The translations under genes were made by a program, and so were the position numbers. A stretch of DNA of 64,000 nt from Nitrospirales bacterium. GTDB lineage: Bacteria; Nitrospirota; Nitrospiria; Nitrospirales; UBA8639. Positions 14,376 through 21,420 of the stretch are shown in pieces. The notes beneath the pieces were generated by a model that saw only the letters and a program-made list of their open reading frames with translations, searched no databases and was not told the DNA's origin. Position 1 is the stretch's first letter. Each line of letters begins with the position of its first letter. The stretch spans positions 1,408,001 through 1,472,000 of the forward strand of contig OY820905.2 of the NCBI GenBank assembly GCA_963555755.3, given 5' to 3'.

Positions 14376-14432
14376 GTAGATTACCTCCCAATGGGACTAT
14401 CACCTTCTGATGTGGCAATGCAAGACCTGACC

Positions 14433-15901
14433 CAATACTGTTCACTTAGATATCTTCGGTGGTTTGATGGATGGTGTCCAGTCAATTTGCGCAACGGGCG
14501 GTCTCGGACGTTTGTACGGTGCGTATGGAGAGTTTCGGCGTTTCACCATCCTCGGCTTGATTTTTCCACGACTGGATTCACACAACAGTTTCGCCGTCGC
14601 CTCAAACAGCAGCCGATACCATGTTTTTTGGCGCTCAGGGGGGAAGGGCCCCAGATTGGGGCAGGGTTCGACGCACTAACTGCACCGTGGCCGTAAAAGA
14701 TACCGTGCGGTCAGGGATGTCTGCCTGGGTGGCCCCTTGATACATCAACCAGCGCACGGCGTAGTGGGCCATCACCCATCCGTAGAACTCTTGACGCACC
14801 AACTCTGGCGTTTTACTGCGCAGGACGCGACGACGTTGCCTCAGGTGCGTCTTCAGCTCATCAAACACCAATTCCACCTCCCAGCGCTCGTGATACAGTT
14901 GAGCCAGGTCCTGGGCGGGTGCGCCTTGGTCATCCAGCAGCGTGGTGACGAGACGGTACAGCGGTTCGCTATTGGGCCCCTGCGGTAAGACATACTCAAT
15001 CACCCTGATGGCGATCCCATCAATTCGCTTTCTTCTGGCGCGTTCACTGGGATACAGATGGCTCAGGTACGAGCCATCGTCCAACAGCTTGTCAACTGGA
15101 AGGATCAAGCTCTTCGGCATGCGCCAGAGTAGTTGCGCTCCGGTCTGAAGGCCGGCCTGCCAATGGGCGTACCCGACAAAGCCGCGATCGGCCATGCAGA
15201 GCATGTCGGGCGTGAGGCGACGCACCAAGGGCGCGGCCACCTCCCATTCGGCCTGCTTATAGGCCCCTAGTTCGGCATCCAAAATGGCGTGACTGGCACA
15301 TTCCGTCAAAATGGCGCACTGGGCTTGGGGGTAGCCGGCCTGCCCGGTTCGGCTCCCTGGGTACCCAAAGACTTGCACATTGGCTTCCTCATCCGGGACC
15401 TCAAAGTTGGAGCCATCTATCGCGACGAGTCGGTAGCCTGCAAAAAAGGCGTGGGCATGCTCTGGACGAGCCAACGGGCGCAAGCAGCGCTGTCCAATGG
15501 CTTTCAGCGCCTTCCACGTCAGCCGTGAGCGGGCTTTGCTGATGGCGGATTTGACAACGGTCACGGGAGCAACGGGTTTGTGGTCTTTCCATGCCAGCCC
15601 TTGGGCCACAGCGGCAAACACCGCTTCGTACGCGGCCTCGCTGTATAAGCTCAACGCCATGGTGTAGTACACCACGGCAGAAGCGGGAAAGGTGCGGACA
15701 CGTTCACTGTTACAATGATGTGCGTCAAGTTCTTCGTTGATGATGGCCACCGGAAAGGCACGAGCCAGTAATCCCGTGCTCAAATAATCCGCCAATCGAG
15801 CCCCCGCCCCCAAGCCGACTTTCTTTCTTGCCATGTTGCCTCCTCCCAGATTACGTGTGGAGGCGAAGTATAACAGATTTTCATCTAAGTGAACAGTATT
15901 G
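14433..15901 (-). mobile_element. IS4-family IS, copy 1
   Basis: Perfect 19-bp TIRs CAATACTGTTCACTTAGAT; 10-bp TSD AGACCTGACC (14423-14432, 15902-15911). Confidence 0.95.
14635..15834 (-). CDS. IS4-family DDE transposase (copy 1)
   Basis: RLVAIDGS, LCMADRGF, LYHERWEVELVFDELKTH (YREK motif). Confidence 0.93.
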   Translation of the reverse strand: MARKKVGLGAGARLADYLSTGLLARAFPVAIINEELDAHHCNSERVRTFPASAVVYYTMALSLYSEAAYEAVFAAVAQGLAWKDHKPVAPVTVVKSAISKARSRLTWKALKAIGQRCLRPLARPEHAHAFFAGYRLVAIDGSNFEVPDEEANVQVFGYPGSRTGQAGYPQAQCAILTECASHAILDAELGAYKQAEWEVAAPLVRRLTPDMLCMADRGFVGYAHWQAGLQTGAQLLWRMPKSLILPVDKLLDDGSYLSHLYPSERARRKRIDGIAIRVIEYVLPQGPNSEPLYRLVTTLLDDQGAPAQDLAQLYHERWEVELVFDELKTHLRQRRRVLRSKTPELVRQEFYGWVMAHYAVRWLMYQGATQADIPDRTVSFTATVQLVRRTLPQSGALPP

Positions 15902-15939
15902 AGACCTGACCCGAGCCCACTATCTACCCCTATTCTGGT

Positions 15940-16084
15940 TCAGTCCCAAGCCAAACCACATGTGTCGGTAAGTTTCTCTAACTCCAAACCATATTCGTTG
16001 GGTTCACCATTTGGAAGAAGTCCATTTTTGGAAAATTCATCTCCTAATTCATCTACGATTGCTTCCCTTAATATGCGAGATAAA
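15940..16084 (-). pseudogene. 3' fragment of a small acidic hypothetical gene trapped between repeats
   Basis: LSRILREAIVDELGDEFSKNGLLPNGEPNEYGLELEKLTDTCGLAWD*; AT-richer than its flanks; the ORF-track N-terminus is intron sequence. Confidence 0.45.
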
Positions 16085-19670: not shown

Positions 19671-19715
19671 AGACCTGACCCCCAACCTGACCCCCAACCG
19701 TTGCAAGACCTGACC

Positions 19716-21184
19716 CAATACTGTTCACTTAGATATCTTCGGTGGTTTGATGGATGGTGTCCAGTCAATTTGCGCAACGGGCGGTCTCGGACGTTTGTAC
19801 GGTGCGTATGGAGAGTTTCGGCGTTTCACCATCCTCGGCTTGATTTTTCCACGACTGGATTCACACAACAGTTTCGCCGTCGCCTCAAACAGCAGCCGAT
19901 ACCATGTTTTTTGGCGCTCAGGGGGGAAGGGCCCCAGATTGGGGCAGGGTTCGACGCACTAACTGCACCGTGGCCGTAAAAGATACCGTGCGGTCAGGGA
20001 TGTCTGCCTGGGTGGCCCCTTGATACATCAACCAGCGCACGGCGTAGTGGGCCATCACCCATCCGTAGAACTCTTGACGCACCAACTCTGGCGTTTTACT
20101 GCGCAGGACGCGACGACGTTGCCTCAGGTGCGTCTTCAGCTCATCAAACACCAATTCCACCTCCCAGCGCTCGTGATACAGTTGAGCCAGGTCCTGGGCG
20201 GGTGCGCCTTGGTCATCCAGCAGCGTGGTGACGAGACGGTACAGCGGTTCGCTATTGGGCCCCTGCGGTAAGACATACTCAATCACCCTGATGGCGATCC
20301 CATCAATTCGCTTTCTTCTGGCGCGTTCACTGGGATACAGATGGCTCAGGTACGAGCCATCGTCCAACAGCTTGTCAACTGGAAGGATCAAGCTCTTCGG
20401 CATGCGCCAGAGTAGTTGCGCTCCGGTCTGAAGGCCGGCCTGCCAATGGGCGTACCCGACAAAGCCGCGATCGGCCATGCAGAGCATGTCGGGCGTGAGG
20501 CGACGCACCAAGGGCGCGGCCACCTCCCATTCGGCCTGCTTATAGGCCCCTAGTTCGGCATCCAAAATGGCGTGACTGGCACATTCCGTCAAAATGGCGC
20601 ACTGGGCTTGGGGGTAGCCGGCCTGCCCGGTTCGGCTCCCTGGGTACCCAAAGGCTTGCACATTGGCTTCCTCATCCGGGACCTCAAAGTTGGAGCCATC
20701 TATCGCGACGAGTCGGTAGCCTGCAAAAAAGGCGTGGGCATGCTCTGGACGAGCCAACGGGCGCAAGCAGCGCTGTCCAATGGCTTTCAGCGCCTTCCAC
20801 GTCAGCCGTGAGCGGGCTTTGCTGATGGCTGATTTGACAACGGTCACGGGAGCAACGGGTTTGTGGTCTTTCCATGCCAGCCCTTGGGCCACAGCGGCAA
20901 ACACCGCTTCGTACGCGGCCTCGCTGTATAAGCTCAACGCCATGGTGTAGTACACCACGGCAGAAGCGGGAAAGGTGCGGACACGTTCACTGTTACAATG
21001 ATGTGCGTCAAGTTCTTCGTTGATGATGGCCACCGGAAAGGCACGAGCCAGTAATCCCGTGCTCAAATAATCCGCCAATCGAGCCCCCGCCCCCAAGCCG
21101 ACTTTCTTTCTTGCCATGTTGCCTCCTCCCAGATTACGTGTGGAGGCGAAGTATAACAGATTTTCATCTAAGTGAACAGTATTG
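19716..21184 (-). mobile_element. IS4-family IS, copy 3
   Basis: Same TIRs; TSD AGACCTGACC (19706-19715, 21185-21194); nearly identical to copy 1. Confidence 0.95.
19918..21117 (-). CDS. IS4-family DDE transposase (copy 3)
   Basis: Same protein as copy 1 from MARKKVG; the ORF-track extension to 21228 lies upstream of the RBS and partly outside the IS. Confidence 0.93.
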   Translation of the reverse strand: MARKKVGLGAGARLADYLSTGLLARAFPVAIINEELDAHHCNSERVRTFPASAVVYYTMALSLYSEAAYEAVFAAVAQGLAWKDHKPVAPVTVVKSAISKARSRLTWKALKAIGQRCLRPLARPEHAHAFFAGYRLVAIDGSNFEVPDEEANVQAFGYPGSRTGQAGYPQAQCAILTECASHAILDAELGAYKQAEWEVAAPLVRRLTPDMLCMADRGFVGYAHWQAGLQTGAQLLWRMPKSLILPVDKLLDDGSYLSHLYPSERARRKRIDGIAIRVIEYVLPQGPNSEPLYRLVTTLLDDQGAPAQDLAQLYHERWEVELVFDELKTHLRQRRRVLRSKTPELVRQEFYGWVMAHYAVRWLMYQGATQADIPDRTVSFTATVQLVRRTLPQSGALPP

Positions 21185-21420
21185 AGACCTGACCCCCAAC
21201 CCCCCCCCCCAACACTGACCCCCAACACTCTGGAAACCCAGCCACGGCTAGGACAAACGAAAAATATATTAAGTCAAGACCTGACCTCTCCCATTTGGCT
21301 ATTGGAGTGAAATATTCAACAGCCCCTGAATGCAATAACACAGGCCTGACCCTATTATGACCCTATTATAAGTCAATACTCATGCCTGACCCCTTATCCA
21401 AATGGAACCTTGCAAGACCC
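21185..21420 (+). repeat. Cluster of CCTGACCCC-family repeats, including a type B copy at 21368-21396
   Basis: AGACCTGACCCCC, CTGACCCCC, CAAGACCTGACC, CCTGACCCTATTATGACCCTATT, ATAAGTCAATACTCATGCCTGACCCCTTA, TTGCAAGACCCC. Confidence 0.8.

Follow-up and report, generated by a model that had tools for sequence, protein, structure and literature searches.

We analysed a 64,000-nt stretch of the genome of a Nitrospirales bacterium (the window; bare positions refer to this whole stretch, and its source genome is called G000), which carries three copies of an insertion sequence (IS) of the IS4 family. This IS sits in one 10-bp word, AGACCTGACC, or in close variants of it, and the target, GGGGTCAGGTCT, is the tip of the terminal inverted repeat (TIR) of TIRtrons, i.e. 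elements with a Y1/HUH transposase. A group II intron in the window enters the repeat at the same bond. Comparison of insertion sites makes it quite probable that a cut-and-paste transposase dimer recognises a 10-12-bp word, whichever way round it lies, and makes its two cuts 10 bp apart; the transposase likely selects the word by reading DNA directly.

Every one of the 21 full IS copies in G000 has a 10-bp target site duplication (TSD). Mismatches to AGACCTGACC number zero in 15 of these, one in four, two in one and three in one, such that 19/21 lie within one mismatch, while distinct TSDs make up 29/32, 26/27, 11/11 and 6/6 of those in four control IS families of G000 (a fifth family, of 2,582 bp, was left out). 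A first-pass annotation, made from the window letters alone, had proposed a sequence-specific IS4 because the three window copies have an identical 10-bp TSD, and had named unrelated TSDs at other copies as grounds for abandoning the idea; the census of G000, and that of relatives described below, bears the proposal out. The shared orientation relative to the repeats (type A) that it reported holds for the window but not for the genome, where 10 copies lie one way and 11 the other, and a fixed insertion orientation was rejected. The exact 10-mer occurs 49 times in G000 (8-10 expected under Markov models); once the IS copies are taken out, 34 exact sites can be counted, 15 occupied by the IS and two by the intron. 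In sequencing run X10 one contig runs from an IS end into a TIR (29 letters of it) whose counterpart in G000 is empty, a hint at further insertions in other strains; four further sequencing runs compared with the IS gave no new flanks.

The word lies on both sides of each window copy (starts 14423/15902, 18193/19671 and 19706/21185), and the terminal inverted repeats of all three are perfect over 19 bp. Copies 1 and 3 differ at two positions. Copy 2, which had been called a diverged isoform, differs from copy 1 by 28 substitutions and a 1-bp deletion (98.0% identity), the deletion cutting its transposase frame to 175 aa; since two other genomic copies are only two positions away from it, copy 2 is a real isoform. 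The 399-codon frame is intact in 20/21 copies of G000. The four unique 300-bp flanks of the window copies have no mutual similarity, in agreement with the annotators' remark that flanks differ beyond the TSD, and their view of the insertions as independent fits both these flanks and the 21 copies with TSDs of their own. A copy elsewhere (G000:C1:594584-596052) is a mosaic, made up of parts of both isoforms, A and B.

By sequence criteria the element belongs to the IS4 family, subgroup IS4. Its transposase (P0001) scores 210.9 bits with NCBIfam NF033592 (cut-off 115) and has the YREK motif (Y-2-R-3-E-6-K) as YHERWEVELVFDELK; the ends (CAATACTGTTCACTTA) fit the subgroup pattern -AATR--------WTW, the length of 1,469 bp falls within 1400-1650 bp, and the 10-bp TSD of 21/21 copies falls within 10-13 bp. 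The nearest named protein, from a plasmid collection, is an ISBvi1-family transposase (46%), and ISBvi1 is listed in subgroup IS4 in the accessible supplement of PMC2266710. The DDE and YREK motifs, ends, size and TSD length are thus shared with the subgroup as described in the available portions of that source (De Palmenaer et al. 2008), which also ascribe to some members a spectacular apparent insertion specificity in the target arms, whereas the specificity here lies in the duplicated 10-mer itself, matching the TIRtron TIR.

The repeat is, judged by its motif and setting, a TIRtron terminal inverted repeat. In the accessible portions of PMC3733652 and PMC6006769, TIRtrons (TIRYT) form TnpA-Y1 subclass 2.1, and their TIRs share the motif GGGGWSAS; the target repeat resembles these in fitting the motif and in bounding Y1 genes with a C-terminal helix-turn-helix (HTH). 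The other strand of most empty sites spells GGGGTCAG, and the Y1/HUH genes of G000 lie between GGGGTCA...TGACCCC repeats, which form several families. At locus L208 (genome G160) the type-A TIR stands, as an inverted pair, on both sides of an intact 285-aa Y1_Tnp plus HTH gene, and at L228 the same tip surrounds another TIRYT gene. In G000 the type-A TIR goes only with remnants: TIRYT coding remnants lie at most 450 bp from 7/21 IS sites, and no intact TIRYT gene with a type-A TIR was seen among 17 Y1 matches. Of 301 genomes from the phylum, five contain an 18-letter TIR pattern; one is G000, and in the remaining four, whose assemblies are fragmented, the transposase did not turn up. The first-pass annotation had pointed to IS that target repetitive extragenic palindromic (REP) sequences; for the present repeat REP identity was rejected: the aligned empty sites show, by inspection, neither a GTAG/CGTC tag nor a hairpin.

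Relatives of the transposase were taken as the best 80 of 359 related stretches in a collection of genome contigs, with readable flanks at 39 near loci (at least 53% identity) and 32 far loci (at most 46%). Flanks within two mismatches of the word number 40/61 at near loci, 0/59 at far loci and 0.07% among random 10-mers, counts in which neither paired flanks nor kin are independent of each other and many of the far copies come from few genomes. TSDs of the far elements are mostly CTAG-, CTAA- or TTAG-centred. A perfect 10-bp TSD is present at 11 near loci, of which eight lie within two mismatches of the word and two have three. A quick tree of 53 proteins splits 36 near rows from 17 far rows (SH-aLRT 100), with a long-branch warning attached to it. 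Nitrospirota, Pseudomonadota and Chloroflexota all appear among the record titles of near loci, and aligned insertion sites show the target to be conserved across this multi-phylum clade. TIRYT genes are present at 7/45 near loci vs 0/35 far loci; in five host genomes of relatives, the TIRYT TIRs had no one-to-one match to each element's own target variant. No relatives were found in viral contigs. At six loci (L002, L032, L047, L048, L063 and L065) the word is oppositely oriented at the two IS ends, with no TSD, from either collapsed assembly or inversion between copies.

IS4 elements move by cut-and-paste, cleaving the two target strands at points separated by one helical turn, which gives a 10-bp TSD (available portions of PMC2266710). 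The word is pseudo-palindromic (RGWC-NN-GWCY), a form that would suit a symmetric transposase dimer acting in either orientation. The symmetric-core pattern occurs at 879 G000 sites in 128 classes, and 15/17 insertions among them fall into a single class; because only one of 128 symmetric classes takes most insertions, the word must also be read asymmetrically. The clade may have moved to the AGACCTGACC-type target from CTAG-centred targets like those of its relatives, and it would persist because TIRtrons scatter non-coding TIR copies. Besides the dependence among flanks and the tree warning given above, several observations weigh against direct reading of one word: 21/61 near flanks have at least three mismatches, the eleventh perfect near TSD (L054) is unrelated to the word, the G000 site with three mismatches lies outside any TIR, and exact 10-mers are filled unequally according to the next letters (CC 11/17, single C 3/6, other 1/9).

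This last dependence means that context matters, and it keeps a TIR-bound factor in play. Targeting might be indirect, with a TIR-bound protein (TIRYT) or a DNA structure bringing the transposase and the 10-mer only marking the place, a reading we consider unlikely, if the best of the alternatives. It would accommodate the unequal filling, the TIR context of 19/21 IS sites, and the finding that the intron, with a pairing of only ~6 nt, also reaches TIR tips of several families. Against it, the tips of three abundant TIR families are never used by the IS in G000 (0/65, 0/24 and 0/20, i.e. 0/109 sites), the 17 Y1 matches include no suitable intact TIRYT gene, and the copy at G000:C1:4599189 has broken into a DUF1456 gene at an exact 10-mer that stands bare, with no TIR context. 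Because of this last copy, direct reading of the word is favoured and the idea of the repeat as an abundant safe harbour, put forward in the first-pass annotation, is limited; with 34 exact sites, 15 of them already taken by this IS, that idea is right only in part.

Direct reading also fares better than three further explanations. Wide insertion followed by survival only in harmless TIR sites would account for sites that are mostly non-coding, but selection would neither fix an exact 10-bp register nor skip equally non-coding TIR families, and the control IS families survive at many unrelated sites, such that we regard it as very improbable. An IS-encoded RNA guiding target choice, as in IS110/IS1111, could find room in the ~200 bp after the annotated stop codon, yet neither non-coding end of 23 elements has a conserved target match and the +1 frame of this 3' region shows conservation at the protein level, leaving the guide scarcely credible. 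Segmental duplication or misassembly, suggested by the mere 45 bp between copies 2 and 3 and by the lack of any contig from the sequencing runs spanning an IS junction with 31 letters on each side, is hardly tenable when these neighbours are different isoforms with unrelated flanks, 18 more copies have their own flanks and TSD variants, and relatives from other phyla have the same target.

The intron has the domain I and domain V/VI structures and the reverse transcriptase (RT)-maturase of a group II intron; no endonuclease domain was found in the RT-maturase by Pfam. It sits directly 3' of CTGACC in the repeat copy at 18066-18075, 117 bp from the copy 2 TSD and in the opposite orientation. 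The annotators had seen an IS boundary 3' of CTGACC coincide with the intron insertion point, and the bond is indeed the same, but in another copy of the repeat. In the intron clade of G000, YTGACC precedes 17/17 5' junctions in several TIR families, and the loop GGTCAG is kept in 15/17. For the predicted exon-binding site 1 (EBS1) and its partner, intron-binding site 1 (IBS1), 43 of 80 metagenomic loci could be scored over six exon letters each, with pairing at 236/258 loop positions against a mean of 198 and a maximum of 217 in 5,000 shuffles. Exons end in [CG][AT]CC at 36/43 loci, the full TIR tip fits at 19/33, and TIR positions -7 to -13 vary: the intron is broader than the IS in its choice of TIRs. 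We infer that it reaches the same bond by a different route, RNA pairing of the predicted EBS1 with CTGACC. Since each IS insertion leaves two copies of CTGACC followed by C, the intron target would be doubled. At L040 a relative of the IS and a relative of the intron lie directly against each other at a single site, and together with the 17 junctions and the EBS1 covariation this upholds the proposed convergence of two unrelated parasites on one site. L140 was rejected as a second shared site: ten IS-end-like letters follow the intron there, but no IS4 frame lies behind them. Folding of the intron's first 286 nt alone gave z -0.83.

Other introns of G000 were observed alongside. A second group II type (1,994 nt, 14 starts) lies at 11/14 starts inside domain V of other introns, chiefly TIR-targeting ones, forming twintrons (on G000:C1, e.g. 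2999, 242558, 1381243 and 2162010-2165998), including one head-to-tail triple. A sister family, which shares the EBS1 loop and begins with an unusual 5' end (GCATG), has 12 starts from 2357 to 2586075 on G000:C1; near 2166780 one of its copies occupies the left TIR of a TIRtron that is intact.

The conserved +1-frame region after the transposase stop codon appears to be a hidden C-terminal tail. Its motif is in the +1 frame in 38/53 elements, in +2 in two and not found in 13. In 27 rows preselected by the motif, variability at the three codon positions is 0.25, 0.20 and 0.47, and no row has a stop in the tail frame, vs 13 and 22 rows in the other frames. An in-frame XTY-YCC-CCS site precedes the tail in 43/45 elements with a readable end; because near and far elements have it alike, the CCC site does not by itself explain the target shift. 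The split layout recurs in a named ISBvi1-family copy, and among the best 150 profile hits of the tail there were no full-length transposases and eight with a catalytic YREK-type motif in the same frame. A PR-VK segment like that of the tail ends the E. coli IS4 protein, there in frame; the match by hhalign is weak (probability 9.3, E 0.0035), which counts against the likeness. The AlphaFold model of a natural in-frame fragment (P0284) reached pLDDT 40. The full transposase would need a +1 shift at CCC-CCC for a normal C-terminus, and such a requirement would keep transposase expression low. The absence of frameshifting is given as a hallmark of the IS4 family in the accessible text of PMC2266710, and the conserved tail argues against this single-frame rule, as far as codon conservation can tell. 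Within the available portions of a 2016 review (PMC5009743), no IS elements with +1 ribosomal frameshifting had been identified, and +1 shifts at CCC_UGA and transcriptional slippage at U5C4 are described; PMC3711429, in its accessible part, reports +1 DDE_Tnp_1 clusters with A-rich sites.

A fuller picture can be drawn only tentatively, and we rate it somewhat below even: an undescribed, widespread Tn5-family transposase clade with one 10-12-bp target and no guide RNA or helper, a dedicated parasite of TIRtron ends that shares its bond with a group II intron clade and doubles that clade's targets, and whose transposase owes its full length to +1 ribosomal frameshifting at CCC-CCC. It is unusual for a single small DDE transposase to have a near-fixed 10-bp target, and since the sister group has another target, specificity residues should be mappable, which would be useful for site-specific integration tools. 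TIRtron ends, a little-studied repeat class, appear here as a landing site common to two unrelated parasites across phyla. Because of the hidden tail, the C-terminus is probably missing from the proteins that databases list for this lineage, and assays must allow for that.

IS231A, an IS4-family element of another subgroup and with another target, reportedly prefers the terminal repeats of Tn4430. Its insertion specificity is stated in the accessible portions of PMC2266710. IS4 elements at dispersed repeats and introns in transposon ends are already known. In ISRm22 of Sinorhizobium meliloti, also of the IS4 family, all copies lie in a dispersed repeat at a fixed point (available portions of PMC1525189, Tobes and Pareja 2006); it differs in belonging to subgroup IS4Sa and in making 6-bp repeats at the axis of a palindromic REP, compared with the 10-bp TSD at a TIR tip. 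The group II intron RmInt2 likewise homes into the terminal inverted repeats of another mobile element, but it targets those of ISRm17 and uses EBS2 (accessible part of PMC4615759), unlike the present intron with its TIRtron targets and variable positions -7 to -13. Neither IS nor intron targeting of TIRtron TIRs is described in the available portions of PMC3733652 or PMC6006769, and IS4 targeting of TIRtrons was not found in the literature searched, with ISfinder, subscription journals and figures outside its scope.

Features of the window that concern the IS, the repeat and the intron
Positions	Strand	Feature	Basis or remark
1752..1776	+	Empty type-A TIR	
2612..2627	-	Empty type-A TIR tip	
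2822..2846	+	Empty type-A TIR	
14410..14432	+	Type-A TIR of TIRtron type, ending in the 10-bp left TSD of copy 1 (14423-14432)	Same TIR bounds intact TIRYT gene in L208
14433..15901	-	IS copy 1, isoform A, IS4-subgroup element, 1,469 bp, 19-bp terminal inverted repeats	
14442..14645	-	Conserved +1-frame tail, 67 codons	Similar to the C-terminus that E. coli IS4 carries in frame
14635..14646	-	Candidate +1 shift site CTT CCC CCC TGA	Identical in 21/21 copies
14635..15834	-	DDE transposase open reading frame of copy 1, 399 aa, Nterm_IS4 and DDE_Tnp_1, YREK motif	Pfam
15902..15911	+	Right TSD of copy 1	
16092..18065	-	Group II intron, 1,974 nt, inserted between CTGACC and C of TIR	RF02005, RF00029
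16240..17577	-	Intron-encoded RT/maturase, 445 aa	TIGR04416
17870..17875	-	Predicted EBS1 (GGTCAG), domain I loop	Loop position in Rfam alignment; covariation with IBS1 in relatives
18066..18202	.	Mini-element with two inverted type-A TIRs; intron in left, IS copy 2 in right (TSD 18193-18202)	Related intron-free stretch at 2655-2754
18203..19670	-	IS copy 2, isoform B; transposase frame cut to 175 aa by 1-bp deletion	
19671..19715	+	Right TSD of copy 2, then TIR tips repeated in tandem, an incomplete TIR and the left TSD of copy 3 (19706-19715)	
19716..21184	-	IS copy 3, isoform A	
21185..21194	+	Right TSD of copy 3	
21277..21286	+	Exact 10-mer, unoccupied, within a different TIR variant	

We also note some neighbours in the window. 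(i) Toxin-antitoxin modules (HigBA, VapBC) lie cassette-like between TIR copies at 1149-2493 and 21490-22100. (ii) At 12472-14375 lies an ISAs1-like element whose N-terminal domain is DruA-like and whose frame is split; it has 36 full copies with unspecific TSDs. (iii) An IS66-type transposase lies beside an open reading frame with a DruA domain (2888-5220), apparently within a 2,413-bp element with 12 full copies. (iv) A 1,966-aa protein with SpvB, TcdB_toxin_midN, FG-GAP and RHS domains is encoded at 5293-11193. (v) Tandem repeats of ~100 bp occupy 22290-22830.

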